From: Candidatus Omnitrophota bacterium
GTDB taxonomy: Bacteria > Omnitrophota > Omnitrophia > Omnitrophales > Aquincolibacteriaceae
Reading direction: 5' to 3'
Assembly: GCA_035368605.1 (NCBI GenBank)
Contig: DAOSLF010000010.1
Location: 766-64,765 of the forward strand
DNA: 64,000 bases
Shown here: piece after piece, positions 2,756 through 48,700 of the stretch
How the letters are laid out: each line of letters opens with the position of its first letter
How positions within the stretch are numbered: position 1 is the first letter of the stretch
Translations under genes and position numbers: made by a program
The notes under the pieces: model-generated
Seen by the model: only the letters and a program-made list of their open reading frames with translations
The model's database searches: none
What the model was told of the DNA's origin: nothing

Positions 2756-3505
2756 ATGTACAAGCTCGTTCTGATTCGTCACGGCGAAAGCATCTGGAAC
2801 AAGGAGAACCGGTTCACCGGCTGGTATGACGTGGACCTCTCCGAAAAAGGTCTTCAGGAGGCCAGGGACGGCGGCGCCCTTCTCAAAAAAGAAGGCTACA
2901 CCTTCGACGTCGCCTTCACCTCCGTTCTCAAACGCGCGATCCGCACCCTGTGGAACGTCCTCGATCAGATGGACCTGATGTGGATCCCTGTCATCCGGGA
3001 CTGGCGGCTGAACGAGCGTCATTACGGGGCGCTGCAGGGTCTCAACAAATCCGAAACGGCCATCAAGTACGGCGAGGCGCAGGTCAAGATCTGGCGCCGC
3101 AGTTACGACACGCCGCCCCCAAAGCTTGAACCGAACGATCCACGGAGCCCGGCGTTCGACCCGCGCTACAAGAACCTCAAGCCGAACGAACTGCCGCTCA
3201 CGGAATGCCTCAAGGACACCGTCGCGCGCGTGATCCCCTTCTGGAACGATACGATCGCGCCGGCCATCAAATCCGGCAAGAAGGTCCTCGTCGCGGCGCA
3301 TGGCAACAGCCTCCGCGCGATGGTAAAATTCCTCGATAATATCCCCGAAAGCGAGATCGTGGAGCTCAACATCCCGACCGGCATGCCGCTCGTCTACGAG
3401 CTCGACAAGGACCTGAAGCCGATCAGACATTACTATCTCGGCGATCCGGAAAAGATCAAGGCGGCGATGGAAGCCGTCGCGAACCAGGGGAAGGCGAAGA
3501 AATAA
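2756..3505 (+). CDS. gpmA: 2,3-bisphosphoglycerate-dependent phosphoglycerate mutase
   Basis: LIRHGESxWN catalytic His motif, RHYG and full-length dPGM similarity. ATG at 2756 preceded by GGGAGGG. Confidence 0.9.
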
Positions 3506-3700
3506 TCGCCACGCGTGCCGCGCCGCACGAAGAAGATCCTTCTCTCGCGGCATGTGCTGTGCGGCTTTTTGTCCGGTTTGAACAGAAAGGAAAAATAACG
3601 CGTCTCGGGTTCATGGCGACCCGCCGGCCCTTCATCTTCGGCGTGAGTTTTCCGCTTTCCGGCATCGCCGTCGCTTGAGCCTGTTCGCCGAAGAACCGTC

Positions 3701-14431: not shown

Positions 14432-16216
14432 TCAGCTGTTCTGAATGGCGGTCTGGTTCTTGCCGGAAGCCTTGGCTTTGAGCAGGGCCTCCCGGGCCCG
14501 CTGGACAACTTTATCCGGATTTTTTTCACCCGGCTTCAGTACCGCGACGCCGGCACTGACCGTGACATGGAAGGAAGGGTCACCGGCCTTGTCCGTCCTG
14601 AATTCGATCCGCTCAAGCGATTTCCGGATCCGCTCGGCGATGCCGAACGTGACTGTCGCGAGGTTGTATCCCGCGAGAAGCACGATGAATTCTTCGTCTC
14701 CGTAGCGGCCCGCGACATCGGGGACAACGCGGCCTTTCGTCCGGATCGCACCGCGGATCACCTCCGCCACGCGCTTGAGAACGATATTACCCATGCGGTA
14801 CCCGTAAACGTCATTGACTTTTCTGAAATCGTCGATGTCGAGGAGGATGACGGCGAACGGCTTGCGAAAGGTTTGAGCATAACGCATGGCCTGAACCAGA
14901 AATGTCGAGACATAACGCATCACGTAGAGCCCGGTCAGTTCGTCGCGCGCGGCCAGGTTGAGAAAATACATGCGCTCACGACGTTCGGCGATCTTGCCGG
15001 TCACCCCCGAGATCAGGAGAAACAGCGCGATCAAAAGGATCTGCGGGACAACACCGAACCACACGTTCGCTCCGCTGAAAAGCCAGAAAGACAGAAGCGC
15101 CCAGAGGGCCGCCAGGGCCGCCGCGGCGAGCATGGCATAAACACCCCGGATCGAGAGCATCACGGCCCCCGCGGCCAGCGCGACAAGGATCAGGCCGGCG
15201 GCCGCCTCGGCGGACGACGGAATCCGGATGAAATCCTCCGTCAGGATCATGTTGATGATGTTGCCGGTCACGCCGATCCCCGGTGTCGCGGCATCAAGGG
15301 GGGTTCTTTTGAAATCGGAAGCGGTCAGACCGATCAGGCATATCCTGTTCTTGAAATCTTCCGGCCGGATCGGGCTCGTCTGGCCCTTCTGGATTGCCGC
15401 GTACCCGTTCAGGATATCCGCGAAGGGATAATACCCCGAAAGGGCGTTCCATTTTTTCGTCCAGCGAATCATGAGATTGTTATTCCGGTCGAGGGGCAGC
15501 GCGCATTCCGCGGGCGGCGGCACGCTCTTCCCGAGATGGTCATAAGCGACGCGGAAACCAAGGTGCGGCAGCAGGTTCCGGTTGAACTTCACGTAGGGGT
15601 AGGCGCGACGGATCACCCCGTCGGGGTCTGGCGTGTAATTGATGTGGCCGATGCCCCGGGCTTCCGCGGCGTAGAGAGAATCCGACTGGTTCACGTAATA
15701 GTAGTTCCGGAAACCTTCCGATTCAAAGGAAAGGGGCAGGTAGATGTTCCCGGACCTATTGAACTCCGCGAGCAACGCCTCGTTGTCCTCCTGCGAGTCC
15801 CCGGCCTGCGAAAAGAAAAGATTAAAGACGACCGTCTTCGCGCCCCACTCCCGGAGGATGCGGGCCATGGCCGCATAGTAGCGCTTGGGCCAGGGAAACT
15901 GTTTGACGGACTGCAGGCTTTTGCGGTCAATCCCGATGTAAACAATGTCCGGACTGACGGGAGAGTCTCCCTGCGCCTTCAAGAAAATATCGAAAACACG
16001 ATTATCGAGATTCTGCACCCACGCGGTCTGTGAATGCCCGAGGAAGCAGATGAGAACCAGAAGGAAGGAAAGCAGCTGGATCAGACGGAGCGGCGTAAAA
16101 AAAACGACAATCCGCCGCAGCAGCTCGGTCGCGTATCCCTGCCGCCGGCGGACGAGACCTTGGGGCGTCTTTTCCATGAATCCGATACCGCCTTTCCTAG
16201 CTATGGGGTTCTCCAA
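14432..16216 (-). CDS. membrane sensor with periplasmic CHASE2-like domain and C-terminal GGDEF domain (motif reads GDEEF)
   Basis: N-terminal TM, long periplasmic segment, 3-TM block, then a GGDEF fold (DxFKxxND, RYGDEEF). Confidence 0.8.
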   Translation of the reverse strand: MENPIARKGGIGFMEKTPQGLVRRRQGYATELLRRIVVFFTPLRLIQLLSFLLVLICFLGHSQTAWVQNLDNRVFDIFLKAQGDSPVSPDIVYIGIDRKSLQSVKQFPWPKRYYAAMARILREWGAKTVVFNLFFSQAGDSQEDNEALLAEFNRSGNIYLPLSFESEGFRNYYYVNQSDSLYAAEARGIGHINYTPDPDGVIRRAYPYVKFNRNLLPHLGFRVAYDHLGKSVPPPAECALPLDRNNNLMIRWTKKWNALSGYYPFADILNGYAAIQKGQTSPIRPEDFKNRICLIGLTASDFKRTPLDAATPGIGVTGNIINMILTEDFIRIPSSAEAAAGLILVALAAGAVMLSIRGVYAMLAAAALAALWALLSFWLFSGANVWFGVVPQILLIALFLLISGVTGKIAERRERMYFLNLAARDELTGLYVMRYVSTFLVQAMRYAQTFRKPFAVILLDIDDFRKVNDVYGYRMGNIVLKRVAEVIRGAIRTKGRVVPDVAGRYGDEEFIVLLAGYNLATVTFGIAERIRKSLERIEFRTDKAGDPSFHVTVSAGVAVLKPGEKNPDKVVQRAREALLKAKASGKNQTAIQNS

Positions 16217-17065: not shown

Positions 17066-17725
17066 TCATTCCATCATCAAACCCTTGAGAATGGCTGTTT
17101 CCCTTTGAGCATCCCGATGCTTCTCCACAAAGTTTTGATATTCCGCAGATGTAAAATCAAAAACACCTTGAAACGCACAAAGCCCTGGCTCCTGGGACGA
17201 CCGGGACAAATACTCCTGATAGGAAGAGTGCTCCCATTCGCCCGGCTTGTTGACCAGACCGGCGCTCGCAGGATTCAAATGGATATAGCGTGACAAATGC
17301 AAGGCTTGTTCATTTGTTTTGACGCGAACATTTTTGAAGCGCCCCTCCCAAAGGGGTCCTTTCCGCTTATGCCTCAGATTAAAATACCGCGCATAACCAT
17401 TGAGGAGCCTTCCCATGAAAACAGATATACCGTTCGTTGCGGATTGCCTGAGAAACAAATGAATATGGGTCGGCATAAGGCAATAGGCGATAATATGAAC
17501 CAGTCGTTCTTTCTCCCGCCGCTCGGTCATCCGCGGGGTCATGTCCTTTCCAAGCCGTTTGAGCCACGAAAATTTCATGGCAGGATCCGAAACCTGGTGA
17601 AACTCCAGAAGCGATTTCATTCGGTCGAATTCGTCTTTATGGTTAAAAATGACGAATCCCGCGATACTTTTCGTATAAACATGGTAATACTCCCCCGTCG
17701 CCAACGGATCCTTGCGAACCTGCAT
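17066..17725 (-). mobile_element. REP-associated tyrosine transposase (RAYT, IS200/IS605 TnpA-like HUH enzyme)
   Basis: GEYYHVYTK N-terminal motif, HUH motif PTHIHLFL, catalytic Tyr motif YIHLNP. Flanked by inverted REP copies. Confidence 0.8.
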
Positions 17726-17876: not shown

Positions 17877-20800
17877 TTAGGCGGCGGAGGCGAGGGAGCG
17901 GGCGGCTTCGGCAGCGATCTGGATATTCTCGGCCAGGAGGAGAATGGCACTCAGCGGCTGCACGCCCCGCGGGAGGTCCTTGTTCTCAAGCAAGGTGTTG
18001 AGGGAAGCGATCAAGCCGTAGGACCTCTGGCTCAGCGTCATCCCCTTGTCGTTATAGACCGAGAGCACCCGTTTCCCGCGGCCCGCCTTCGCGAGCGACG
18101 GCGCGAGCGAGCGCAACCCGGCCCCCTCGTCACCGCGCAGGTCATAGACCAGGCCGCCTTCGGAATTCCGTCCGAAGAATCCCGCAATTTTCATTTCGTC
18201 GGAGTCAACCGAAAGATCGATCCTCCCGCCCGCCTTGCGCGCTTTTTGCGCCATTTTCATGAGCATCCGGCTGAACTCCCCGAGCTCGGTCTTCGACACA
18301 CCCGGGATGATGATCTGAAAAAGGAATTTGCTGTTCGCGATCAGGACCACGAGCGTTTGAAGGACGGGATCGTTCGCCGCGGGGACCGCGTCAAAGATCA
18401 CCGCGACCTGCTCCCTCCCGCTCTCAAGCTTCACCGGATCCATCAGCAGGTCTTTTGCTTCCCGAGTCCCGGAACCCGGGGTCCGGATCTTCATCGTGTG
18501 TGCCGCTGGCACCAGGGAATCGAGGACTCGCCCGAGTTCCGCCCGTCCGATCGCGAGTACTCGCTCCTGCCGGAGCACATACGCCGCCGCTCGCGCCACG
18601 CCGATTTCGTTTGGATCGAGGATCCGTTTCTGGCTCTCCGCCAGGGAACGCTTTTCGCTCCGCCGGGCTGAAAGAGGAAGCCCCGCGACGTTCTTCGACA
18701 GAACGGAGCCGTCCCTTCTTTTCCCCGGCACCCCCCCCCTGTCTTCGGTCGGGGCCATCCTTTTCTCGCTGCGGGGATCTCCGGTCTCTGGTTCAAAAAC
18801 CCAGCGGAGCACGGTGACGTTATCCAGTGCCTTGTGATCGCCGGCCAGGACCACATAGTCATCGGCCATACGCCCCTTGAGAGACAAATCCCGTATCCTT
18901 CTGTCCCGCTCCACGCGTCCGCCCGGGTCATCTCCGTGTATGCCATCCGTGGCTACAAGAATCTCGATAGACTCCCGTGCGTCCGTCAGATCGATCTTCA
19001 GAATCTCGGGCTTCCGGATCAGCGTGGGCGAAAAAGCGCGGTCGCCAAAACCCCGCGTCGTGGTCGTGGACCTCCCCGTTCTCAAATTCCGGATGAAAAC
19101 GCGCCCGTCCTCCGCCGCAACCTCAAATCCGGGCGCGGGGCGCATATCCGGGTCTTCCGCGACCCCATGTTCGGGAAGCGGCACCGGCTCTCTCCGGTCC
19201 TTGAAAATGTAGACCGGCGAATCGCCGAGAATCATGACGTATGCGGTTTTCCGGTCCTTCGGGACATAGACGAGGGACAGCGTCGATCCCGAATACATCC
19301 ACGCGGTCAGTATCTGGAGGATGCGATTCGTCCCCGCGAGCGCCGATTCAATATTCCCCCGGTGCCAGAGGACCAGCACCCGGAAAAACGGAACAAGCAG
19401 GGCCCGGAGGAGATTGACCGCACCGGCGCCCCCGTGACCGTCCATCACCGCCATCATCCGCCCGCCGCCGCCCGGGAATCCCGAGATCAGAGAACCGACA
19501 TTCCTGTGGAAGAATCGGTCTTCCTGCTTCCCGCGAATCCCCTCGGCCTGGGCCGTCTCGAATTCACCGAAAATTTCGCCGAGCATGACCTTCAGGGTGC
19601 CGGCGATGATCCGTACCATCAATTTTCCGGACCAGCTCAGGACTTCGTCGGCATTCCGATCCAGGGCACGGATAAGCTCCGCCCGCGTCGGCGGCCCTTT
19701 CCCGAACCTGCGCTGCCACATGTGGAAAGAACACCAGCCGGGTTTTCGGGTATTGAACACCGTGGCGTAGGAAGGATAGATATCCAGTTCCTGCTGTCGC
19801 AGGGGACGCGGTCCGACGATCGACATTTCGCCTTTGAGGATGTTGATCGCCTGAGGGAGCTCATCGAGTCCCGTCCGGCGCAGGAATGCCCCGAAGCGGG
19901 TCGGCACCCTGTTGCCCGATACCGGCATCGTCCGGAATTTGTATATTTTGAAAAGCTTCCCTTTATAACCCGGGCGCTCTTGCGTGAAAAAAACAGGCCA
20001 TCCGATGAAAGGCGCAAAGACCGCGGTCGCGGCGGCAAGAACCGGCATAATGATAAAAAGAGACGCGACGATATCGATAGCCCTGAGCCACGGCGCCCAT
20101 TTCGCGTAAGGCGACCCCGCGAATATTTTCTCCGTGATAACTTCCGGGGCTGATTGTCCCGCAGGAGCTTTCTGCTTCGTGCCCGGTTCTGTGCGGACAC
20201 GCGGCGTGAGTTCCCAAATGCCGGGAGCTTCGAGGAGTTTTTTCCAATCTTCGATCGGAACGAACCGGTAATAGCTGATATCGCGGCCGTCCTCTCTTTC
20301 GAACTGAACGCTATGAAGCCTGGCATACGTCCCCGCCTTCAGGCTGTTTTTCGCGCCGTCCGACTCGATGAACCCGCGGAAGTGGAAGATGTCCCGCCGA
20401 TCCTGTCCCTTGCTGTCGGGAGCGTGCGGGATATAAAGTACGGCGCCGCCGGTAAGCCGCCGGGACGGGTCATCGAGCTTCTGCGAGGAAGAAACCTTCA
20501 TCAGTTCCGCGAGCGCCCCGGGATAGTCTTTGTCGTAAGAATAGATCGACCCGAGCTTCCGGAGAGCGTCATTGAAGGCCCGATGCGCGTCTTTTTCCTC
20601 AGGCCCCTTCAAAACCACCATATCCAACCTCGTAGGTTGGATGGGTTGCCGTACCTCCGGGCGGGAAACGGGAATGGATCCGTCCGTGCCTTGTGGCGAA
20701 CCGGAACGCGTCGGGTGGGCGAACTCCCGTGACAGAATCCTCTCGAAATCTTTCGGGATCATGACGCCATCGCTCATTACGAATTCAAAAGCGCCCGCGT

Positions 20801-23800
20801 TCATGTCGCTCCACGCCTGGGCATAAACCTTGATATCCGTCAGGAAAATTCTTCCGGAAGCGTCAATCGCGAATTCGATCACCAGCGGATGGCGAAAATA
20901 ATCCTGCCAGAACCGGGCAAGTTGATAAATTTCCCGGAGCTGGGGATTCCCGAGCGCGGCTTTCTGTCCGTCATTTTCCGGGATCTCTTCCGTCACAAGC
21001 CCTTCCCCGTCCGGATCGAGTGATTTTTGAGTTCTTTTTTCTCCGATATGGATCTTCGTAAAATCGTCGGGGGCATCCATCCGCACCAGATCCGTACCGA
21101 CCTCTTCCTGGGATCCCGCCGTCAAGCCGTATCCGGCACTCAGGACCATCGTCGAGCGGTTCACCGTAAGCACTCCGGAAACCTTTGCGGGGATCATCGG
21201 CTGGACAAACACGCTCATGAACCCGCCGAACATGTCCGTCCCTCTCATCTTACGCACCCCGATCGCCCGGGGCGTCCATGCGGAAGCGATCACTTCCTGG
21301 GCGGCCGCCGCAAGATTCTCCGCGCGAACCCCGATAACCGAGGCGTGAGTTCCCGGAAGAACAGCCCCGGAACTTTCCTCCTGTCCCGCCGAGCGCACGG
21401 CAAAACGCGCCTGCCGCCTGTCCCGGACAAGTTTTCCGGTCCACGCTTCCCATGGAAAATCCCTCAACCCTTTGCCGGGCCCATCAAGAAGCTGACGGAT
21501 TTTTTCGTAGCGTTTCCCGGCCGGGATATCTTCTTCCAGGATTCGCCGTATTTCGGGTTCAAAAGGCCCGACAGCCTCCTCAAAAGCCTTTCGGGTCATC
21601 ACGAACCCATCCTCGATAAAACCCGGTGCCCGGGGATCCGCCTCTTTCAGGACCAGCGCCTCTCCAAGCTCCCGGGCCTTTCCTCCGACCTCCTCCGCCG
21701 CGAAGAACGTCTGATTCAACCGCACGGCCGAAACGTCCTTGAACGGTTCTCTCTTTTCTTTGGATGTTTGTTCATAACTCTCGCGCAAATTTCGAACGGC
21801 CGGCAGATCCGTCAGTCCGAAATGTTCGGCTTCCTTTAACATCCTCGCGAGGGCGGGGAGGTCGGACGACACGATCTTTTTTTCAGTCGCGCTTTCCATT
21901 TTCGCGATTAACTTTCTGCTCAGGTCTTTCCAGCGGCGCATCACCTCTCTCTTGAAATCCCCCGTCTCCCGGACAAACCCCTGGTCCGCTTCGAAGCGCG
22001 GCCGGTCGCCTCCGAGACAGGCGTTGGCAAAAGCAACAAAGGATTCATACGCACGCATTCTCTTTTTCGTTTCCAGAAAAAGGGAAACAATCTCCTGGGG
22101 AAACGTGGTGTCGGTCACCTTCCCATGCGCCGACCGGAGCCAGTTCCGGAGTTCTTTTTCGCTCCGGGAAATATAACGGGCCAACTCCCCTTCGGAAACC
22201 CTGGCCTTGGCAAGCAAGGCCTTTTTCATATCGTCCGGGATCGTTCCGGAGGAAAGGATTTCCGACAAAAGATAGTCCCGCTGCCTCGCCGACAACGCGC
22301 CAAGATCGAATTGTTTGAGATCCCCCGCCGTCAGCAATCCGGCCTCCGCCTTTCCCAGAAGATCGAACTGCCGTCGAAACATCCTCGATGTCCCGAGAAT
22401 CTCTACTTTCCCGGTCTCATCCAGAAGCACGATCGTGTTTTCATCAGCCCGCACAAGGTCGGGAATCTCGCGGATTTGCCGCACCGAATAGCCTCCGATG
22501 TTTACGGCGGAATCTTTCTCGTATCTCCGCAACTCGAATCCGTCGGGCTGTTGCTCCCCGTTCCGGTGAATATCGATGTCCGGCAGACCGACCCGGTGCA
22601 CGCGAAGGCTTTGCAGCGAGAGATTGGTATGGCTCGTTAAATTGGCCAAACCCGACGATGTCTGCAGAATGCCGGCAATGCTGGAATCCTCCGCGCCCGG
22701 ATCTTTCGGGATCATCGCGATATCCTGATCGGAAATTTCATCGCGCAGCAGCACGTATCGCTCGTGGGAGGGCGCGTGAGAAGGCAGGCGCGTCACCAGC
22801 TTTCCCGCGCGCGGGGCAAGGCTTGGCGAAAATCCGCTCCCCTTGCAGCCATAAGTCAATTCCGGCGAAGACGTCTCAAGCCCTTGTCTTAAAGTTTCCT
22901 CTTTCACCGCCGTGTCCGCGGAGACATCAAACCTGGGGGTCATGAGCGGATAAAAAACCTCGAGCTGATCTTCGATCTCTGCGGCCAAGACCGTCCCGTC
23001 TTTTTTCTCCGCCGAAAGAACATAAACGAAAGAGCTCTGGTCCGCGTTCATCAGGGCATAGAAAACACGCGCCTGTCCCGGAAGCTCCACGGCAACCCTG
23101 ACCGCAAGAAAACGCCCGATCAGGGCAAGCGGTTTAAACCCGGAAAAATAATGCCGCGGAAGACGGTTTAAAACCTTCGCGCTTGCGAAAGACTGGTCCT
23201 GTTCGCCGACCGGCCGCGATAAAGCGTTAAGGAGCCGTTCGACCGGGGTTTTCCATTCGCTGTATTCGGGATTTTTCCCGAGAACACCGTCCCCGCCCCG
23301 GATCAGCCTTCCTTCGAGCAAGCCCTGCCGGATAGGCTCGACAAGATATTGGGCAAAAGACACCTGGTTCAGGAAAATCTCATCTTCGGGGAAAGGCTCA
23401 AGACCCAGCCCGGCAAGAATCCTGTTAAAATAATCCCGGGCTTGACCGACAGAAGATTGCGTGCGGAACATACGCATCCTTTTATCGATCTCCCCTTCAA
23501 TGTATTGAAGGGGCAGACGCGGATACCTCAGACCCATACCGGTCTTTCCGGCGGCATTCGCATCCGCTTCGGCCTGGCGGACCCTTCGGATGAGTTCCTC
23601 AAAAAGGAGATTGTCGGGGATATCCTTCAAAAGGTCCCGGCTCATTCCCAAATAGGCTCCCAGCATGGAGTCCATATTCACCAGACCCAGTCCCGAATAA
23701 AGCAGAACCGGTACCCGGCGGGACAGCGCGAAAAGCGAATGGGGCTCTTTCGCCGCGTCTTCATTTAAACGGGCTGCCACGGTCGGTTGGATCGTTGTCC

Positions 23801-26800
23801 TCAAAGTATTCCCGAGGGCCTCTCCGCCGGCATCGTTCCCTCCCGGCATCAGCAGAGCGTCCAGGTTCCCCTGGTTGCTCACGGGTCCCAGGGATAACGC
23901 CATGACCTGGTAATGCGCTCCGCGCGTCGGCTTGAATGTGAGCTTCGCCAGACTTCCGTTAAAGACCAGCGCCTCCTCGTAGGGGCCGACCAATGACGGG
24001 AAAGCCACCCCTGAAACGGGTTTCCGGTCGCGGGCCGTCCCGATCCCGTCGGCGACATAATCAGGAAGCGCGGGAGGCAAACTCTCCAGAAGAAAAGTCA
24101 GCGCCGCGGAATTCCTGCCGGAAAGCGTGTTATACGATGTCAGGTCCGTCAAATGGACGGGCGCGACCGCCTCGGTCTTTTCCGCAGGATCATACCGTAC
24201 CATCGGCGATACCACATGCAGGCCCGGATCGATAAGAACATTATAAAAACGGCTCCGCATCAACTCCTTGCGGTCGAGTCCCCGGAGCACCTCCGTCTTC
24301 CGCTGGTCTTCGGGGTCCGAAACGATGTTCCCAAAATGCGAGAGATAATAGTGGTGAAGAAAATTAACAAATTCATTCAGGATCTGCGCCCTCCGGATCC
24401 GGCTTTCCGGCCACTCGTAATCATGTTCCCACCCCGGAGAAATGGAAAGGAGGCTCGAGGGCGCGCTCGTCCGGCTCTTGCGAAACAACTCTTCCTTCTT
24501 CGCGGCAATCCGGCTGAAAAATTCGCGTTCCTTTTCCTGCCGGAACGCTCCGCGGAAGAGGTCCTTGAACGCGGAGGCGAAGGCGGTCACGGATTCCAGA
24601 AATTCATGCCGCTCCAGCTCCTTGAGGCCGGAACTTGTCGCGATAGCCTGTGCCTTTTCCCGGACTTTAAGATGCATCTTTTCAAATTCCGCCACGCGGG
24701 CGTCCAGAACGTTCCGGTTGATGGAATAAAAACCCAAATTCCAGAACGGGCCGTCTTTGCGAATATTCCTGCCTGTAAACAAAGAGGCCATATTCTCGGG
24801 AACGGCAAATCGCATCTCCTGATTCAGGAGGGCGCGCTCGTCCCCCGAAGGAACGGTGTCATCGTCAACATCTCCTTCGATGTCGGGGTCTTCATTCCGG
24901 ACAACCTTCGCTCGCTCCGGCGTTTCGGGCACAAAACTGATATAGACAATTTTCTCGAGATGAACAAGGTCGCTGAGATGCGCGCTCGTGACCGGCATCC
25001 CATAGAGTGTCCTGAAATTACGGATCACTTCCCTCAGTTTTTCAGCCCCTCCGAATTCCCGAACCGCGCGGTCGAGATTCTTTTTCATGAATTCACCCGT
25101 CAACCCCGCCCGGAGCATGAGCATGGGGTGCAGGAGCGCGCCAACGCCGGAATCCGTTTCACGGGCAATTTTCCGAAAATAATCAAAATCCTCACGGGAC
25201 ATGCCCGCGGCAACGGCCCTGCCTCTCAAATCTTCCAGAATCTCCGGCGTGACGGGGATTCTCCGCAGGTTTTCCCCGGCCAGGAATTTCAGTGAATCGG
25301 GATGAGGCCCTTTTAGCGCCCCGGCAAGAGCATCGAAGGAGTCGTGGATTTCCAGCAAGACTTCAGGGTCCTCCCGAACAAGACCGGCCAGAACGGCTCC
25401 TGCCTTTTCTTTTCCGGTTCGATCCGGGCTATGGAGCTGTCGTATCAACTCGGAGATTTGAGAACTTCTTGCCCGATTTTTATCATCCACCGGCTCGGTT
25501 CTCCGGTTTAGAAGAAGTTCCCGATCCGGGGCCGGAGGCTCCCGTTGTTCGGAACGGACGGACAAATCTTTGACGGGCTGAAGGATCGCCCGGACGCCTT
25601 TCGGAAAATATTTTTTCGCTATATCGTCCCGGACCATCAGCAACGCGATATAACGGTCCGAATGTGCGAACTCCTGGGATGTGGCCCCGGCGAGGACCGA
25701 GTAAGCTTCGCTGAAAGGCCCCATGATGTCTTCCCGCAGGGCGAAGGTCAACCCCGTGGTAATGACCATCGCGGGTTCAAGCCGTTTCACTTCCTCCAAA
25801 AAACTCATTTCCTCCCCTTCGGAATAAGCTCCGAAAACATAGGAGATGTTCATGACCACGATCGCGTCCTTCCACTCCGCGGGGTCCACCTCCCCCGAAT
25901 CCAGGGCTTTCCCGAGATATTCCACGGTCTGGTGGCGGTTCGGCTCCCAGCCGTTACGCTTGAGATTCCCAGCCAAACGGGCGCGTTTTACGGCAACAGG
26001 TTCCACAAAAAGGACTTTCGGGGAGTTCCGGAAAAACAATCCCAGTTTTCCGTCACTCGCTCCAAAATCAACGGCCGGGAAATCCTGAACGACCGGCCGG
26101 AGCTGTTGCATCAGTGCAAGAGCAACGTGAGCCGACGCGACCGGCGTTTCGGACCGCCCCATAAAGTCGGGGTTTTCCAACGCAATAAACTGCACATCCG
26201 GATACCGGGACGTCGCGGGGCCGAGGATCGCCCGAGTCGCAGGGTGATCCCGGTAATAAACGACATCTCCGTGCCGGCGAACGATCACCTGCTTTTCCCC
26301 GGATCCGTCGATGTCCGCTTCAAAATAATCCAGGGGGACCAGATCCCCATCCCGATTCGCGGAATGATAAAAATCATGTATCACGTCCGGGAATTTCTCA
26401 CGAAAGAGGGGGAAGAGCTCCCTGATAAAATCCCCCTCCACGGATCCGATCGATTCGTTGAGCGCGGCGCGGACCGCCTTGGGGAGGCTGGACATGAGAC
26501 CTTCCAGGCTCACCATCAAACGGTCCAGACATTCTCCTGCGTTAAAGTAATAGGAAGGATTCCCGATGTAGGCGGAAAGAGACGGAAAATCCCGTTTCAG
26601 ATGTTCAGTGACGCTTTTTGAACGCGCGAACGTGTCGGGAACGGCATTGTAACCGTAGGTCACTTTAAAACGATCCGGCCTTCGGACAAAATAAACCGCC
26701 CGTTGAGCCTCCGCGACACTCAGGAACGGTTTCACGTCTTCGTCCCGAAGCCTCGCCTCGGCGCGACCTTCCAACGGTTTCAACCGCGCGGGCCGACGAG

Positions 26801-28682
26801 GGTCCCGCGTAAGACCGTGGGCCGCCAGGGCCGGAGACCTGAGGGAAGCGATCAACTCACCGACAGGCGTTTTTCTCCGGCTGCTGATCACGTGAAGGGC
26901 TTCCCGGAATATTCCAAGAAGGCGATCAGCGGTGGCGGACCCAAGGTCTTGACGCAGGAGATGATATCCGGACGCGAACGAAGGAGGGCGGACATTGGAC
27001 GACCGGAATTGTCGTTCCGGCCCCGGAGACGAGGTCCGGTCTTTAAGGAGCATCGCATCCAGGTAGGCGCCGGGTTTGCCGGGTTTCGTGATGCGTGGCG
27101 TGACCCGCACGCAGGAGATCCCGGCCTTTTTCAGGAATTCCGTAACGCCGGTGGAGTGGTAACCGCCGGTAACGAGTACGGCGTTCGGCTGTTTCATTGC
27201 CTTCATCCGCGCGATCATGTTCGCAAGCAGGGCTTGCTCGCGGGCTTCAGCGGTTTCGTAAAACGCCCGGGCCTGGTTGAGCGCCGCCCGCACGGGGCTT
27301 CCGTCCGCCGGTTTTACTCCGGGCTCCGCACCCCGCACTGACTTTTGATATTCCTCACTCGTCAATTCCAGGCTGAAAAGCTTCTTCAGTATCCGGTACT
27401 CCCTGTACCGCTCGACCAGCGCCTTCTCTTCGGGCTTGCCGGCGAGTTTTTCAAGGATGCGGTCGTTCAGCCTTTCGACCTCTTCGAAAAGTTCGGGGGT
27501 CCGGAGTTCGGAGGAAAGGATCGCGCTGCCGATCTCCCTGGCCAGGACGGGATAGTCTTCGAATCTGAAACCGAGCGGTGAGGCGGATTCATAAAAACGC
27601 TCCACGGCCGTTCGGAAATCAGATGTAGTGCGGGGCGCGGAGTGCGGGGCGCGGCGTTTCAGATCATTGATAAATTCGCAAGAGTCCGGTTTGAGACCTT
27701 TCCCGCTCACCCATTCACGCAGTTTTGTTTCATCCACCCCGTGCTCCGTACGTTGTACGCCGTGCCCGGGTTTTTCAAGCTGTTGAAGTCTGAAAAATCT
27801 GACGAGTTGCGGCCAGTCATACTGTTCGTAAGGATCCGTGAGATCCAGGTCCAGATATTTCGCGGCGGCGCCGGCCATTCGATCGAGACCCGAGAACGGC
27901 TGATCCGCAACCTCGGTCCGGAAAGCCCATTCCCTGAAGAAGGTTTTGCATTCGGGGTTCAGGGTTCGGGAAGCGTCATCGGCGATCTTCTGCCGCTGAT
28001 CCCTGAGGAACGCATCGGTCCGCGGTTTGGCGGCATAGACCGCCCGGAACTGCTCGAGATTCTTTTTGTAAAGCGGAAGATCTTCCACGCCATGGACACG
28101 CCCCGGAACCTGGGCACGGGATACGGAGTACGGCTCAAGACCCGTTGACGCAGGCTCCGTGCCTCGGTCTCCGTACTCTGCACTCAAAAAAAGCTCGACG
28201 CCGCCGATCAGCCCGACCCGGTTCAATTCCTGAAGAAGCTCCCGATTGAGCTCACTGTCATCAAAGAACCGGAGCGCCTCGGGCTCCAGCTCTTGCCAGA
28301 CACCTTCGAGGTATACTGTATCAAGATTGTAATATTCGCGGAGATATTCGAGGATTCTGGCGATGTTCTCCTGCCCCTCCGGCTGCCCGTGGGCCTCCTC
28401 AATATGGACAATGAGTCCGGAAGAAGGACTCGCGGGACCGGCCGCGTAGCAAGTTTCCCGTATTGAACCGATCTCCGGGGGGATGACGATGTGATCCGGA
28501 AGCGTCAGCGACCGGATCTCCGAACTCCTTATTCCCGGCTCCGTATCGAGTGCGGGCATTCCCCACGCAATCGTGGTCGTGACAAAGCAGATCAGCGTGA
28601 ACAGACTGACCGCGCGAAGATAGTGACAAATCCTGCCTTGGTTTTTGAGCATAGCCGGACTGATAGAACGCCTTTCCTCCAA
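17877..28682 (-). CDS. giant 3601-aa multidomain protein. Order: N-terminal TM, shared ~450-aa His-motif domain, Rossmann/MTase-like segment, swivel-His-like domain, PEP-synthase/PPDK-type ATP-grasp domain, PglC-like phosphoglycosyl transferase, PP2C phosphatase, 300-aa C-terminal tail.
   Basis: Single uninterrupted ORF. Individual domain motifs are listed in the findings. Confidence 0.8.
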   Translation of the reverse strand: MEERRSISPAMLKNQGRICHYLRAVSLFTLICFVTTTIAWGMPALDTEPGIRSSEIRSLTLPDHIVIPPEIGSIRETCYAAGPASPSSGLIVHIEEAHGQPEGQENIARILEYLREYYNLDTVYLEGVWQELEPEALRFFDDSELNRELLQELNRVGLIGGVELFLSAEYGDRGTEPASTGLEPYSVSRAQVPGRVHGVEDLPLYKKNLEQFRAVYAAKPRTDAFLRDQRQKIADDASRTLNPECKTFFREWAFRTEVADQPFSGLDRMAGAAAKYLDLDLTDPYEQYDWPQLVRFFRLQQLEKPGHGVQRTEHGVDETKLREWVSGKGLKPDSCEFINDLKRRAPHSAPRTTSDFRTAVERFYESASPLGFRFEDYPVLAREIGSAILSSELRTPELFEEVERLNDRILEKLAGKPEEKALVERYREYRILKKLFSLELTSEEYQKSVRGAEPGVKPADGSPVRAALNQARAFYETAEAREQALLANMIARMKAMKQPNAVLVTGGYHSTGVTEFLKKAGISCVRVTPRITKPGKPGAYLDAMLLKDRTSSPGPERQFRSSNVRPPSFASGYHLLRQDLGSATADRLLGIFREALHVISSRRKTPVGELIASLRSPALAAHGLTRDPRRPARLKPLEGRAEARLRDEDVKPFLSVAEAQRAVYFVRRPDRFKVTYGYNAVPDTFARSKSVTEHLKRDFPSLSAYIGNPSYYFNAGECLDRLMVSLEGLMSSLPKAVRAALNESIGSVEGDFIRELFPLFREKFPDVIHDFYHSANRDGDLVPLDYFEADIDGSGEKQVIVRRHGDVVYYRDHPATRAILGPATSRYPDVQFIALENPDFMGRSETPVASAHVALALMQQLRPVVQDFPAVDFGASDGKLGLFFRNSPKVLFVEPVAVKRARLAGNLKRNGWEPNRHQTVEYLGKALDSGEVDPAEWKDAIVVMNISYVFGAYSEGEEMSFLEEVKRLEPAMVITTGLTFALREDIMGPFSEAYSVLAGATSQEFAHSDRYIALLMVRDDIAKKYFPKGVRAILQPVKDLSVRSEQREPPAPDRELLLNRRTEPVDDKNRARSSQISELIRQLHSPDRTGKEKAGAVLAGLVREDPEVLLEIHDSFDALAGALKGPHPDSLKFLAGENLRRIPVTPEILEDLRGRAVAAGMSREDFDYFRKIARETDSGVGALLHPMLMLRAGLTGEFMKKNLDRAVREFGGAEKLREVIRNFRTLYGMPVTSAHLSDLVHLEKIVYISFVPETPERAKVVRNEDPDIEGDVDDDTVPSGDERALLNQEMRFAVPENMASLFTGRNIRKDGPFWNLGFYSINRNVLDARVAEFEKMHLKVREKAQAIATSSGLKELERHEFLESVTAFASAFKDLFRGAFRQEKEREFFSRIAAKKEELFRKSRTSAPSSLLSISPGWEHDYEWPESRIRRAQILNEFVNFLHHYYLSHFGNIVSDPEDQRKTEVLRGLDRKELMRSRFYNVLIDPGLHVVSPMVRYDPAEKTEAVAPVHLTDLTSYNTLSGRNSAALTFLLESLPPALPDYVADGIGTARDRKPVSGVAFPSLVGPYEEALVFNGSLAKLTFKPTRGAHYQVMALSLGPVSNQGNLDALLMPGGNDAGGEALGNTLRTTIQPTVAARLNEDAAKEPHSLFALSRRVPVLLYSGLGLVNMDSMLGAYLGMSRDLLKDIPDNLLFEELIRRVRQAEADANAAGKTGMGLRYPRLPLQYIEGEIDKRMRMFRTQSSVGQARDYFNRILAGLGLEPFPEDEIFLNQVSFAQYLVEPIRQGLLEGRLIRGGDGVLGKNPEYSEWKTPVERLLNALSRPVGEQDQSFASAKVLNRLPRHYFSGFKPLALIGRFLAVRVAVELPGQARVFYALMNADQSSFVYVLSAEKKDGTVLAAEIEDQLEVFYPLMTPRFDVSADTAVKEETLRQGLETSSPELTYGCKGSGFSPSLAPRAGKLVTRLPSHAPSHERYVLLRDEISDQDIAMIPKDPGAEDSSIAGILQTSSGLANLTSHTNLSLQSLRVHRVGLPDIDIHRNGEQQPDGFELRRYEKDSAVNIGGYSVRQIREIPDLVRADENTIVLLDETGKVEILGTSRMFRRQFDLLGKAEAGLLTAGDLKQFDLGALSARQRDYLLSEILSSGTIPDDMKKALLAKARVSEGELARYISRSEKELRNWLRSAHGKVTDTTFPQEIVSLFLETKKRMRAYESFVAFANACLGGDRPRFEADQGFVRETGDFKREVMRRWKDLSRKLIAKMESATEKKIVSSDLPALARMLKEAEHFGLTDLPAVRNLRESYEQTSKEKREPFKDVSAVRLNQTFFAAEEVGGKARELGEALVLKEADPRAPGFIEDGFVMTRKAFEEAVGPFEPEIRRILEEDIPAGKRYEKIRQLLDGPGKGLRDFPWEAWTGKLVRDRRQARFAVRSAGQEESSGAVLPGTHASVIGVRAENLAAAAQEVIASAWTPRAIGVRKMRGTDMFGGFMSVFVQPMIPAKVSGVLTVNRSTMVLSAGYGLTAGSQEEVGTDLVRMDAPDDFTKIHIGEKRTQKSLDPDGEGLVTEEIPENDGQKAALGNPQLREIYQLARFWQDYFRHPLVIEFAIDASGRIFLTDIKVYAQAWSDMNAGAFEFVMSDGVMIPKDFERILSREFAHPTRSGSPQGTDGSIPVSRPEVRQPIQPTRLDMVVLKGPEEKDAHRAFNDALRKLGSIYSYDKDYPGALAELMKVSSSQKLDDPSRRLTGGAVLYIPHAPDSKGQDRRDIFHFRGFIESDGAKNSLKAGTYARLHSVQFEREDGRDISYYRFVPIEDWKKLLEAPGIWELTPRVRTEPGTKQKAPAGQSAPEVITEKIFAGSPYAKWAPWLRAIDIVASLFIIMPVLAAATAVFAPFIGWPVFFTQERPGYKGKLFKIYKFRTMPVSGNRVPTRFGAFLRRTGLDELPQAINILKGEMSIVGPRPLRQQELDIYPSYATVFNTRKPGWCSFHMWQRRFGKGPPTRAELIRALDRNADEVLSWSGKLMVRIIAGTLKVMLGEIFGEFETAQAEGIRGKQEDRFFHRNVGSLISGFPGGGGRMMAVMDGHGGAGAVNLLRALLVPFFRVLVLWHRGNIESALAGTNRILQILTAWMYSGSTLSLVYVPKDRKTAYVMILGDSPVYIFKDRREPVPLPEHGVAEDPDMRPAPGFEVAAEDGRVFIRNLRTGRSTTTTRGFGDRAFSPTLIRKPEILKIDLTDARESIEILVATDGIHGDDPGGRVERDRRIRDLSLKGRMADDYVVLAGDHKALDNVTVLRWVFEPETGDPRSEKRMAPTEDRGGVPGKRRDGSVLSKNVAGLPLSARRSEKRSLAESQKRILDPNEIGVARAAAYVLRQERVLAIGRAELGRVLDSLVPAAHTMKIRTPGSGTREAKDLLMDPVKLESGREQVAVIFDAVPAANDPVLQTLVVLIANSKFLFQIIIPGVSKTELGEFSRMLMKMAQKARKAGGRIDLSVDSDEMKIAGFFGRNSEGGLVYDLRGDEGAGLRSLAPSLAKAGRGKRVLSVYNDKGMTLSQRSYGLIASLNTLLENKDLPRGVQPLSAILLLAENIQIAAEAARSLASAA
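18798..19520 (-). other. PP2C-type Ser/Thr phosphatase domain within the 3601-aa protein
   Basis: RMMAVMDGHGG, ILGDSPVYIFKD, LVATDGIHGDD metal-binding motifs. Confidence 0.65.
19698..20075 (-). other. PglC-like monotopic phosphoglycosyl transferase (bacterial sugar transferase) domain within the 3601-aa protein
   Basis: Re-entrant hydrophobic helix, then FFTQERPGYKGKLFKIYKFRTM and TGLDELPQAINILKGEMSIVGPRP. This closely follows the PglC/WbaP catalytic-domain consensus, including the DE dyad. Confidence 0.8.
20622..20642. repeat. REP palindrome copy D, located in-frame inside the 3601-aa ORF
   Basis: Identical to copy A. Translates on the minus strand as IQPTRLD within ...VRQPIQPTRLDMVV... 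Confidence 0.7.
20800..21698 (-). other. PEP-synthase/PPDK N-terminal-type ATP-grasp nucleotide-binding domain within the 3601-aa protein
   Basis: AEEVGGKARELGEAL ... PGFIEDGFVMT (GGKA nucleotide-binding motif + PGF) and downstream DMFGGFMSVFVQPMI. Confidence 0.55.
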
Positions 28683-45781: not shown

Positions 45782-48700
45782 TTACGCGCTTCTCGCCGTC
45801 GCGAGGTACTCGGCCTGCATCTGTTCGACCATCTGACTCACGCCGAGACCGGCCAGGTTGAGGAAGTTCCGGAACATCTTCTGGTCGATCGTGACAACAT
45901 TGTCCTTCAACTGCTCGGCCAGAAGCGCCGCCTGCGGATTGTTCGCTCCCGCGAAAATCATGGCCTTCAGATTCAGGGAAGTGCCGCGGGCCCCGGTTTC
46001 CCGATCGGCGTCCAGGAGTTTTCTCGTCGCTTCATCCAGATCAGCGGCCGGCAGGATGGGAGGCCGGTTGGCCTGGCGGAGCCGGGCGTTGATCTTTTCA
46101 AGGAAACCAAGGTCCGCAGGATCTTCCGTCAGGACAACCGTGCGGATATTGCCAAACACATTGCGGATCACATAAACAAGACCGCGCTTGAAAGCGGTTT
46201 CGGGGTCAAGCACAAGCGCGTCGTTCGCCTGGAGCGTTTTGACCCCAAGCGACCGCCGAAGCATCCGGACGGTGAATTCGCTCTGGAATTTCTCCGGCCA
46301 GCTCGCCACCGTGACGGGCGCGGTCACCCTGGCGACCGGGGCCAGATTTTCAAGGATGATGTTTTTGATTTCATAGGAATACGCGAGAAGCGGTACGATC
46401 CCGTCCATGATCTTTTCCGTCACGGCGCGCATCGCGCGTTCGGACGCACCACTCAGGCGTTCATGATCCAGGAGAAACTCCTTATAGGTCAACACCGGGC
46501 CGGAGGCCGTGACAAGACCTCTCAATTCGCCCGCGATCTTCTGAGGCCGTGTTTCTGTCGAACGCGTTTCCGCGCGGGGGGCAGCAGAGCCGTCCAAAGG
46601 CGCCTCAGCCGCGGATTCGTTTTCCGTTTTAACGGACGGGATGACGGTAATGCCGGTCCCTTCGCGCTCGAGCTTCCAGAGACCGAGCTTCACACCCAGG
46701 GCAAGCGCGATCTCTTCCTGCGGCCGCAGCGGTCTTTCGGTGTTGTGCCCGAAAAGGTCCTTCAGGGAAATGACCGGCGGCATTCCTTGAACCGTTTTGG
46801 CCGGCGGCGGCACCAGGGCCTCCAGGATCGTCCGGATCCCGTCCTGGTTTTCTTTAATAAACCTTCCGCTAACACGGACAACGCGTTTCGTTCCGCGGAC
46901 CGTTATCCCGATCTCCGTATCTCTCGGATATTCCCTGCCGCCACGCTTGATCACGAGAGAATCCGCATAGAGCTTTTCAAAGGTCGCCGTTTCCCCGGCC
47001 GCTTCGTCTTTTTTAGCCCACTCCACGGCAGCGGCGTATTCGCCGATCGTCACGATCAGAAATGCCCGGTCGTCCTTCGAAAGCGTGAACTGTGTTTCAA
47101 AACGGTCAACAATCGCCGCAATCTCATCCTGTACCACCTCAGGGATCGCCCGTTTATTCATCGCGCCGTAGCGGCGGATAAGTTCGACATCCGGTTTCTG
47201 TTCGAGGGCAGTCACGAGGGCGGCCCGGCTCTTTTCGGCGGAGGACGGTCCTTTCGCCTTTTTCACGGAAGTCCTGGCCTCGGCGCGGACCGTCACCGGG
47301 GGTTTCAGACTTTCAAGAAAGCGGCTCGCGCGAAACAGCCCTTCAAAACCTTTGCGGCCACCCGAAACCAGTTCATGCCCGAGGAACAATTTTGCGGTCT
47401 TGCGAACGCCTTCGTCAGGATGGGAGGCGGCCACTTCCTCAAGCTCCTTGCGAACCCGGGCTTCGTCAGCCGCCGCGTTACGCAGTTCGGCCCGGGCGTG
47501 GTATTTCAGAACGCCGGCAAAAAATACGGCAAAGGACGCTGCCGGAGCCGCCGTCACCATACCCTTTGCCGCGGCCTGCGCTACTGCACGCAACTCGCTC
47601 CGCTCGCTCCACGCAGCGGGCCTTTCGCCGCTCGCTACCGGCGCGTCAGGGCGGTTTATGCCGACGGGGATCATCTGGAGCACCTGGAAACGCCATCCCG
47701 ACTGCTGAACTCCGGCAGGGTCCTTGCGCTTCACAACAGGCACGCCCACGCGCCAGCCTTCCCTGGAAAGAGAGGCTAACGTGTGTTCCCGCTCATAGAC
47801 CGTGTTCGCGGTCCAGTCACGTACTTTATAGACGGTCCCGGGAAGCAATCCCAACCGGTTGATGCTGCCCAAACCAAACCAGACCTTTCCTTCCTCTTTA
47901 TTGTAAGGCGTCTTGGCGAAATGGATCGGAATGACCACATGCCGCTTCTGTTCCGTCCCGTCCACCCTCTCGGTCACGGTGCGGGTAATGACAACGGCGG
48001 AGTCACGACTCGCATCATTGAGAAAGATGTCTCCTTTTTCAAAAAGATCTTTCATCTCCGGATCGGCCATGATCGCCTTCAGAGAGTGATACACTTCAGG
48101 ATCCCAGTCGCGCATATCTTCAAGGAATTCCGGTATCAGCCCCGCGATAAAAGCCATCACAGGACGCACGCCCTCGCTCCCGAAGCCCAGTTCCGAAACC
48201 ATTTTCCCGCGGGACAACGTAGAGATCGCCTTGAGACGCCGCTTCAGGTTTTCCGGGTCATGCCTCAAAAGATAGATCACTGTTTTTTTGAGCCAATAAC
48301 CCCGGGAGCGCTGCTGCCGGACCTGATCTTTGGGGTCCCCGGACACAAGCGCCCGGAGATCGTCGATAATGAACATTTCCTGGGATTGCTTTTGGGGACC
48401 TTCCAGTGCCATCTCCCCGGTTGGACGCAATCTCAGGATCTGAATGTCCGGTTCCGGAACGCCGATCGGAAGCGCCCCGCGGGACAGCGCCCAGAATGGA
48501 TAGGGTTTCCTGTCTTCGCCGTCACCGTAGATCTCGCCGGTGATGACGTTCGACACCTCATAGGCCATTTTCGATTCGGGGTCCGTTTGTCCGGTCAACC
48601 ACTCAAAAACCTTTTCCCCGTAGAATTGCCCCCAGGCTTTCGGCTCGCCGCCTTCCACCCCGGGATATTTCGGCTCCCCAAGGTTCAGCGCCACAATGTA

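Follow-up and report, generated by a model that had tools for sequence, protein, structure and literature searches.

A divergent monotopic phosphoglycosyl transferase domain inside a mosaic giant protein of Omnitrophota

In a stretch of DNA from a Candidatus Omnitrophota bacterium (contig DAOSLF010000010.1; ‘the window’ hereafter denotes this whole analysed stretch of 64,000 nucleotides), a giant open reading frame (ORF) of 3601 aa carries, some 2,860 residues from its start, a genuine monotopic phosphoglycosyl transferase (PGT) domain with a genuine hydrophobic membrane helix. Modules of this well-known type dip into the membrane and initiate the synthesis of bacterial surface sugars. Judged by its sequence, this PGT belongs to a divergent and previously undescribed clade that is found within framed mosaic giants of Omnitrophota (i.e. 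proteins in which a conserved N-module and C-module enclose a variable set of enzyme domains); the embedded PGT is not a one-off, as it recurs in at least four other giants. The reading that we favour, with a probability of roughly 0.5, is that the domain is a genuine monotopic PGT of this clade, that its helix is re-entrant on the membrane's cytoplasmic side, and that it is probably active. For the PGT field, the clade matters in that it breaks several ‘invariant’ positions in concert (including an experimentally important salt bridge) and yet keeps the catalytic dyad, which makes it a natural experiment on the ‘invariant’ residues of these enzymes.

Identity, fold and membrane helix of the embedded domain

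Pfam assigned the domain to Bac_transf with high significance (E 2.1e-31); the match scores 109 bits, where 27 would suffice, and runs from position 2 to position 178 of a profile of 179. The giant ORF and the features of its PGT are the following (window coordinates; residue numbers refer to the 3601-aa protein):

17877-28682, minus strand: giant ORF, 3601 aa, uninterrupted, TTG start (the alternative ATG is codon 11)
19581-20084, minus strand: Bac_transf / monotopic PGT catalytic domain (Pfam PF02397), aa 2867-3034
19983-20096, minus strand: PGT hydrophobic helix, presumed re-entrant, aa 2863-2900 (R2867 = PglC Arg8, D2870 = Asp11, P2880 = Pro24)
19860-19865, minus strand: catalytic Asp-Glu dyad D2940-E2941 in GLDELPQ (= PglC D93-E94)
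19803-19811, minus strand: PRP nucleotide-binding motif P2958-R2959-P2960 (= PglC 111-113)
19695-19745, minus strand: clade-specific loop replacing the canonical KPGxTGxxQxxGRN, aa 2980-2996, KPGWCSFHMWQRRFGKG

The minus-strand translation of 19698-20075, where the initial annotation had placed a PglC-type core with a DE dyad and a PRP motif, corresponds to aa 2870-2995 (DIVASLFIIMPVLAAATAVFAPFIGWPVFFTQERPGYKGKLFKIYKFRTM...GAFLRRTGLDELPQAINILKGEMSIVGPRPL...RKPGWCSFHMWQRRFGK); it does contain both motifs, spans approximately the first three quarters of the Bac_transf domain, and is preceded by the start of the helix, which lies seven residues upstream of the 20075 boundary. The nearest sequence matches in the PDB were to PglC of Campylobacter concisus (E 1e-21 with the domain alone) and to WbaP (E 1e-19). 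An NCBIfam scan of the giant returned only PGT and phosphoenolpyruvate (PEP) synthase families, every one of them far under its cut-off, and the PGT is thus no equivalog of a named enzyme.

The further claims that a hydrophobic helix precedes the fold (as in monotopic PGTs), and that the giant looks otherwise soluble, agree with its hydropathy profile: aa 2863-2900 hold the highest 19-residue Kyte-Doolittle score of the whole protein (2.48; followed by peaks of 1.88 and 1.81 within globular domains and of 1.77 at the N-terminus), and aa 46-2862 comprise no segment that reaches 1.4. The helix-breaking proline (P2880, preceded by Met and not by Ser) is situated within a hydrophobic helix of about 25-30 residues, and by homology to PglC-type monotopic PGTs residue ~2860 would be located at the membrane interface, as the annotation had it. 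The outcome that it had named as its contrary (no Bac_transf assignment, no membrane segment) is the opposite of what Pfam and the hydropathy profile returned.

An AlphaFold2 (AF2) model of aa 2852-3045, computed with a 115-sequence alignment composed mostly of canonical small PGTs, reached a predicted local distance difference test score (pLDDT) of 83.9 and a predicted template-modelling score of 0.79, and contains a single long helix at aa 2858-2893 (this run superseded a poor one with 24 redundant sequences, pLDDT 55.6). Foldseek searches of the PDB with this model gave PglC (template-modelling score, TM, 0.66-0.69; root-mean-square deviation, rmsd, 3.8-4.6 over 182-196 columns) and WbaP (TM 0.70, rmsd 3.0 over 182 columns) as the sole significant matches, the next one having an E-value of 0.66, and the near-full-length superposition of the model on both structures suggests a bend at Pro2880. 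Taken together, the Pfam E-value, the PDB matches to PglC and WbaP and the fold match of a model with a pLDDT of 84 exclude a chance resemblance.

Relatives, catalytic residues and known systems

Word-indexed searches (with aa 2701-3401 and with a clade profile) gave ordinary PGTs only; the embedded relatives emerged from an exhaustive HMMER search, in which aa 2402-3601 were compared with 1.84 billion representative proteins:

P0128: 4446 aa, PGT at aa 1702-1907 (52% identical), same N-module and C-module
P0130: 7818 aa, PGT at aa 6530-6706, both modules present (identity of 52% for the N-module, 48% for the C-module)
P0224: 7365 aa, PGT at aa 5430-5569, same N-module
P0139: 2204 aa, truncated at its N-terminus, with the PGT at aa 1921-2091
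P0127: fragment carrying an embedded-type PGT

Three of the four other PGT giants (2,204-7,818 aa) have a signal-peptide-like N-terminus and the ~500-aa N-module, and two of these three also possess the ~260-aa C-module. In a neighbour-joining tree of 123 domains the embedded-type PGTs formed an exclusive clade of eight (16 of 25 bootstraps).

Two side observations concern the distribution of such domains. The best word-indexed matches to the PGT region were proteins of ~454 aa composed of two tandem small-PGT domains, an architecture that to our knowledge has no place in the scheme of small, large and bifunctional PGTs. Furthermore, one locus (L080:1-5278) consists of a run of short, abutting ORFs on the same strand, one of them with a further copy of the embedded-type PGT. 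This run resembles a giant gene that frameshift errors have broken into pieces, and illustrates how such giants come to be under-counted in protein databases.

To map the residues, the five embedded domains were aligned with C. concisus PglC (sequence from the PDB alignment) and with a diverse set of 114 small PGTs. The Asp-Glu dyad is conserved in 100% of the small PGTs and in all five embedded copies; R2935 and K2915 are the equivalents of PglC Arg88 and Lys59. The giant and the other embedded copies keep Asp11, Gln45, Arg47, Gly49, Phe55, Lys59, Arg88 and Asp93-Glu94, and likewise Pro96, Asn100, Pro-Arg-Pro 111-113 (a motif with a role in nucleotide binding; PMC10186338), Pro134-Gly135 and Gly144, and the equivalent of Pro24 is kept in four of the five (P0128 aligns a Thr). 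The position of PglC Arg145, a polyprenol-phosphate-binding residue whose mutation lowers PglC activity 100-200-fold (PMC10519829), aligns with K2995 (K/K/K/K/R across the clade), in a loop where an insertion makes the alignment uncertain. On this alignment the nucleophile, metal and nucleotide sites look active, while the sugar-side loop and the packing of the helix on the core appear clade-specific, and we infer activity from the former. The kept core, together with the replacements shared with other giants and the clade itself, argues for selection and not for decay.

In comparison to the small monotopic PGTs (PglC of Campylobacter; PDB 5W7L, 8G1N, 8E37), the domain has the same fold at 32-34% identity, an N-terminal hydrophobic helix with a central Pro, the Asp-Glu dyad, PRP, Arg88 and Lys59; in the uncertainly aligned loop, a Lys falls opposite Arg145. 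Unlike PglC, in which the PGT forms the N-terminus of a ~200-aa protein, it is situated 2,860 residues into a 3,601-aa protein, has lost the K7-D169 pair, carries PGWCSxxxxQ in place of PGxTGxxQ and N/E in place of D157/Y160, and its mobile loop is ~12 residues shorter. Neither the aromatic box specific for N,N'-diacetylbacillosamine (diNAcBac; Y118, Y122, W150, F154, F197) nor GLLLP was found (the GLLLP loop is deleted, the W150 position is R3000, and the C-terminal extension is absent), and it is thus not of the diNAcBac type. With the large PGT WbaP (PDB 8T53), which gave the best superposition, it shares an internal PGT helix and a cytoplasm-type domain upstream of it; unlike WbaP, it lacks the four-helix transmembrane bundle and the nucleotide-sensing domain PF13727 (no Pfam match, no upstream hydrophobic segments), as well as the helix-turn-helix insert, and the NCBIfam models of large PGTs score far under their cut-offs (e.g. 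TIGR03025, 110 bits against 296). The bifunctional monotopic PGTs (as defined in PMC11626204 and PMC10942596) resemble it in having the PGT core covalently fused to other enzymes, on its N- and C-terminal sides. Their described partners, however, are enzymes of glycan pathways (acetyltransferases, glycosyltransferases), whereas those in the giants (2,200-7,800 aa, with a separate PGT clade) are ATP-grasp, PP2C, methyltransferases, a helicase, chorismatase and others. The embedded architecture falls outside the scheme of small, large and bifunctional PGTs.

The protein also resembles the multi-enzyme giants of Omnitrophota, which have been described as signal- or transmembrane-bearing enzyme mosaics with PPDK_N among their commonest domains (West-Roberts et al. 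2023 preprint; Nielsen & Lui 2026 preprint): it shares with them the phylum-level setting, the N-terminal signal/transmembrane features and the patchwork of unrelated enzyme domains, and differs in that its 3.6 kaa fall under the survey threshold of 10 kaa. Bac_transf/PGT is mentioned neither in the main texts of both preprints nor in the one supplement examined, and a literature search found no paper linking Omnitrophota with PGTs.

Topology, activity and competing explanations

The giant is composed, in this order, of a signal-like N-terminus, the N-module, ~1700 aa without assignment, an ATP-grasp domain, a linker of ~250 aa, the PGT, a PP2C domain and the C-module. Its parts other than the PGT are:

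28548-28682, minus strand: signal-peptide-like / signal-anchor segment, aa 1-45 (RR..K..R..R, then AVSLFTLICFVTTTIAWG and, after the putative site, MPAL; hydropathy 1.77 at aa 21-45)
27045-28547, minus strand: N-module, aa 46-546 (HIxEAH ... TGG[FY]H), common to the second giant of the window and 79 loci
20841-21695, minus strand: PPDK_N-type ATP-grasp, aa 2330-2614 (Pfam E 2e-25; PEP synthase 9goj, E 5e-7)
18798-19550, minus strand: PP2C (PPM) phosphatase domain, aa ~3045-3295 (PF00481, E 1.5e-5; PDB 4jnd, E 6e-4)
17880-18665, minus strand: C-module, aa ~3340-3601, conserved up to the last residues (...SLASAA), the terminal part of many related giants

The ATP-grasp, which the initial annotation had rightly seen upstream of the PGT, is a nucleotide-binding domain as in PEP synthase/PPDK. 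The PP2C domain was overlooked by the Pfam scan of the long query and was detected once aa 3040-3300 were scanned separately (PF00481, 25.2 bits against a cut-off of 20.3); its metal-binding motifs are all present (QEDRF, DGHGG, LGDSP, GFGDR, ATDGI, LDNVT), and its stand-alone relatives match PF00481 at 1e-19 to 1e-23. Pfam scans of 460-aa pieces gave no match for aa 1-2330 or aa 3240-3601, and a phosphohistidine swivel domain considered at ‘LTSH’ (aa ~2015) was backed neither by Pfam nor by the PEP-utilizers region of the second giant.

In all five PGT giants the PGT is flanked by cytoplasm-type, cofactor-dependent domains, with no hydrophobic segment in between:

3601-aa giant: ATP-grasp upstream, PP2C downstream
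P0128: HAD and S-adenosylmethionine (SAM)-dependent methyltransferase upstream, UPF0489 downstream
P0139: SF1 helicase and GNAT upstream, end of the protein downstream
P0130: His_Phos_1 (histidine phosphatase) upstream, two SAM-methyltransferases downstream
P0224: chorismatase/RidA upstream, SAM-methyltransferase downstream

As a re-entrant helix keeps both of its flanks on the same side of the membrane, cytoplasm-type domains on both sides of it point to a PglC-like re-entrant helix in a cytoplasmic neighbourhood; the segment that follows the helix on its C-terminal side is strongly basic (ERPGYKGKLFKIYKFR). For the helices of PglC and of a WbaP homologue, re-entrance was fixed by cysteine-accessibility experiments (PMC6133551), and the topology of large PGTs was at first misassigned by computational methods (PMC10942596), so that DeepTMHMM would not settle the matter: it took experiments to establish re-entrance. 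Few internal elements of Omnitrophota giants have homologues of experimentally known topology; the PGT helix is among them, and can hence serve as an internal topology marker. The expectation that both of its flanks are cytoplasmic speaks against accepting, for these giants, predictions of a signal peptide plus transmembrane segment at face value. Their localisation is openly disputed (an N-terminal signal set against cytoplasm-type enzymes being their known puzzle), and both preprints concede that the ‘extracellular’ placement of metabolic domains is implausible.

According to the reading that we favour, the helix (aa 2863-2900) would dip into the cytoplasmic leaflet and exit again, as in PglC and WbaP, and would hold the giant's C-terminal quarter against the inner side of the cell membrane; with the ATP-grasp upstream of it, and the PP2C and C-module downstream, all in the cytoplasm, the N-terminal signal-like segment would serve only as a second anchor or tether. 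The machinery of the first half-reaction is intact (Asp nucleophile, Glu, Mg2+ site, PRP nucleotide site, Arg88 and Lys59 equivalents), and the module probably takes a phospho-sugar from a nucleotide sugar and hands it over to polyprenol phosphate. As the sugar-side loop (KPGWCS...FGKG) and the K7-D169 packing are rebuilt, the specificity for the donor, and possibly for the acceptor, could not be read from known enzymes.

Several observations weigh against this reading. Seven positions which are 96-99% conserved in the 114 small PGTs (K7, T137, G138, Q141, D157, Y160 and D169) are replaced. Across the five embedded copies the replacements are L/L/S/A/A for Lys7, C/C/F/M/I for Thr137, S/S/S/S/D for Gly138, M/M/K/M/S for Gln141, N/N/N/D/A for Asp157, Glu in all five for Tyr160 and M/M/Q/G/Y for Asp169, and Asn146 is also Gly in all five. 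The giant itself (T137C, G138S, Q141M, D157N, Y160E) has neither the PGxTGxxQ loop nor the D157/Y160 pair, and the replacement of these five residues leaves activity not guaranteed. The description ‘active-looking’ hence stands for the N-terminal two thirds of the domain and has to be qualified for its N-terminal flank and C-terminal third, in which the seven near-invariant positions are replaced in a clade-conserved manner. PglC has a salt bridge between Lys7 and Asp169; its K7A variant shows no activity, and in K7A/R8A the helix is less firmly held in its re-entrant topology (PMC6133551). In the giant, Lys7 (97% conserved) is L2866 and its partner Asp169 (98%) is M3022, Arg8 being kept (R2867), and none of the five embedded copies retains either partner, which weakens one of the two determinants known for re-entrance. 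Their joint loss looks, by the alignment, like a coordinated rebuild rather than decay. Furthermore, AF2 confidence is lowest (pLDDT 63-77) in the divergent aa 2982-3011, and canonical small PGTs dominate the alignment on which the model rests.

Also to be counted against it are the N-terminus and the setting. Sec-signal-peptide-like N-termini were found in 14 proteins (the 3601-aa giant, the second giant and 12 relatives), with a basic n-region, a Thr/Ser-rich h-region of 12-17 residues and small residues in positions -3 and -1 (AHA↓R, ANA↓Q, AMA↓M and SYA↓A, the arrow marking the putative site; AWG↓M in the 3601-aa giant), and the N-module bears a weak likeness to the ChaN/Tiki superfamily, whose members are typically extracytoplasmic. 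The ‘N-terminal transmembrane’ segment of the initial annotation (hydropathy 1.77) thus resembles a Sec signal peptide or a signal anchor, which sharpens the topology problem: aa 46-2862 offer no hydrophobic segment that could return the chain to the inside, and either the signal-like N-terminus or the flanks of the PGT must mislead. Moreover, the 64-kb window contains no glycan-assembly genes (glycosyltransferases, Wzx/Wzy flippases/polymerases), so that the glycan possibly started by the PGT cannot be guessed from context, and no full-length orthologue of the giant was found by tblastn against 79 fetched loci or by the exhaustive HMMER protein search.

The best-surviving alternative, which we nonetheless consider unlikely, takes the N-terminus at its word: in a type-I arrangement, a working signal peptide would export ~2,800 residues, the helix (aa 2863-2900) would act as a stop-transfer segment running from outside to inside, and only the PGT core, PP2C and the C-module would be cytoplasmic. 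Such an arrangement would put domains that depend on ATP, SAM or acetyl-CoA on the outside of the cell (the ATP-grasp, the methyltransferase of P0128, the helicase and GNAT of P0139, and the chorismatase of P0224), and is at odds with the PglC-like Arg8, Asp11 and Pro24 equivalents and helix arm lengths, and with a model that superposes with PglC and WbaP over nearly its full length, helix included. It nevertheless accounts for the family-wide signal-peptide-like N-termini (several with AxA-type sites) and for the weak ChaN/Tiki-like matches of the N-module. In both the 3601-aa giant and P0128 the PGT helix is the sole strong hydrophobic segment past the N-terminus. In the 3601-aa giant its uncharged run of 29 residues is enough for a membrane span, and its flank charges (~+1 N-terminally, ~+5 C-terminally) suit an outside-to-inside orientation. 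Lys7 and Asp169, which help to hold the N-terminus of the helix on the cytoplasmic side in PglC, are both lost clade-wide, and the 2026 Omnitrophota preprint reports 39% of the long proteins as being of the signal-peptide-plus-transmembrane type.

The replaced positions could also be read in terms of function: the PGT fold may be mainly a monotopic tether, or have changed its chemistry or acceptor, and not carry out the classical transfer of a phospho-sugar to polyprenol phosphate. We judge this rather unlikely. The seven replacements (among them K7, in view of the inactive K7A of PglC) and the mobile loop (PglC 61-81), which is implicated in substrate binding and shortened to ~9 residues in the giant, speak for it, as does the lack of a glycan pathway context, both in the window and among the domain neighbours in the other giants. 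Short mobile loops, however, also occur in ordinary small PGTs (e.g. P0153 and P0166), the clade conserves the replacements themselves (Y160E and N146G in five of five, G138S in four of five), and all the residues that the literature consulted links to catalysis (D93, E94, R88, PRP and K59) are unvaried among the five embedded copies, R145 aligning with K or R, which a mere anchor would hardly explain.

Two readings in which the giants leave the cell appear less probable still. That the framed giants are exported cargo carriers, whose PGT is delivered to the membrane of another cell or spans that of the producer as a rebuilt single-pass fold, strikes us as distinctly improbable; if true, the loss of K7-D169 and the rebuilt loop would mark a topology or an acceptor never described for the PGT superfamily. 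An effector polyprotein exported by episymbiotic or predatory Omnitrophota, with ATP-grasp, PGT and PP2C acting in the prey and the PGT entering the prey membrane from the prey cytoplasm (e.g. tying up polyprenol phosphate), would reconcile the signal-like N-terminus with the cofactor-dependent domains; Omnitrophota giants have been tied to predation in the literature, and the C-module, conserved to its last residue, could be a sorting element. We hold this to be very improbable: a hydrophobic helix of 29 residues can be expected to halt export by the Sec route, the 64-kb window showed no secretion-system genes, and the C-module has no match to a known secretion signal.

Finally, an assembly chimera or a fusion through sequencing error, to which the absence of the exact protein from protein libraries (the only trace being a 330-aa, 99%-identical C-terminal fragment) might point, is in practice excluded by the recurrence of the order N-module, PGT, C-module in independent assemblies (P0128, P0130; N-module and PGT in P0224), in addition to the uninterrupted 10.8-kb ORF in DNA of 58% GC and the lack of a sharp compositional break across the PGT domain (as would mark a recent insertion).

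The frame of the giants and the neighbouring genes

The N-module/C-module frame is a finding of the present analysis (the texts of the two preprints were not searched for it), and the 3601-aa protein displays it in full: a signal-like N-terminus, an N-module of ~500 aa and a terminal C-module of ~260 aa. A search with the N-module, limited to one genome per species, gave 79 loci at 27-54% identity, nearly all in metagenome-assembled genomes of Omnitrophota, with few in Elusimicrobiota or Planctomycetia; the middle of the 3601-aa protein had no match in any fetched stretch, the fetched loci reaching 10 kb past the N-module match, so that a PGT farther downstream would escape. The N-module has an invariant His98 and Glu126-Gly127 and a nearly invariant TGGFH. 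PF04187 (ChaN/Tiki superfamily, haem-binding) was matched weakly by 15 of 42 N-modules (best E 2.8e-4; below threshold in the 3601-aa giant), which makes the N-module a candidate remote relative of that superfamily. For the C-module, identities across P0126-P0135 and P0176 amount to 29-54%; it forms the end of P0126, P0128, P0130, P0135 and P0176, among others, and, like PP2C, turns up in giants of 2,000-8,000 aa. Neither Pfam nor the PDB gave a matching family for the C-module, which may be a sorting or docking element; profile searches with the N-module did not match the PDB either.

Minimal forms were observed as well: a 738-aa protein with the N-module alone (L002:9974-12190), and a protein of ~1330 aa with only the N-module and C-module, ~1.7 kb apart (L005:9950-13942). 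In the light of these forms, the two modules look like a frame around variable cargo, which hints at how the giants are built and suggests that they arise via cargo insertion between two constant ends. The same divergent PP2C domain as in the 3601-aa giant was also noticed inside P0126, P0129, P0131, P0134, P0144, P0147, P0178 and P0184 (1,276-7,989 aa), in most cases with no PGT alongside; like PPDK_N, PP2C is a common cargo module of framed giants.

The window holds a second giant, and two smaller genes are situated close to the first:

45782-59710, minus strand: second giant ORF, 4642 aa, with the same signal-like N-terminus and N-module, PPDK_N and PEP-utilizers, and no PGT
17066-17725, minus strand: IS200-like Y1 transposase (PF01797, E 4e-9), ~150 bp past the stop codon of the giant ORF
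14432-16216, minus strand: CHASE2-GGDEF diguanylate cyclase, two genes downstream of the giant

The N-modules of the two giants are 31% identical over 515 aa (E 2e-55). In the second giant, moreover, one stretch weakly resembles glycogen phosphorylase and five segments after the N-terminus are strongly hydrophobic (19-residue Kyte-Doolittle score of at least 1.6); its ATP-grasp, like that of the first, follows the signal-like N-terminus and precedes the first hydrophobic segment. The spacer upstream of the 3601-aa ORF is AT-rich and promoter-like. The remaining neighbours in the window are housekeeping or unrelated genes (Nuo/Mrp-type subunits, a major facilitator superfamily transporter, superoxide dismutase, an ABC-2 / GldG-like transporter, gamma-glutamyltranspeptidase, transketolase and a menaquinone biosynthesis gene).

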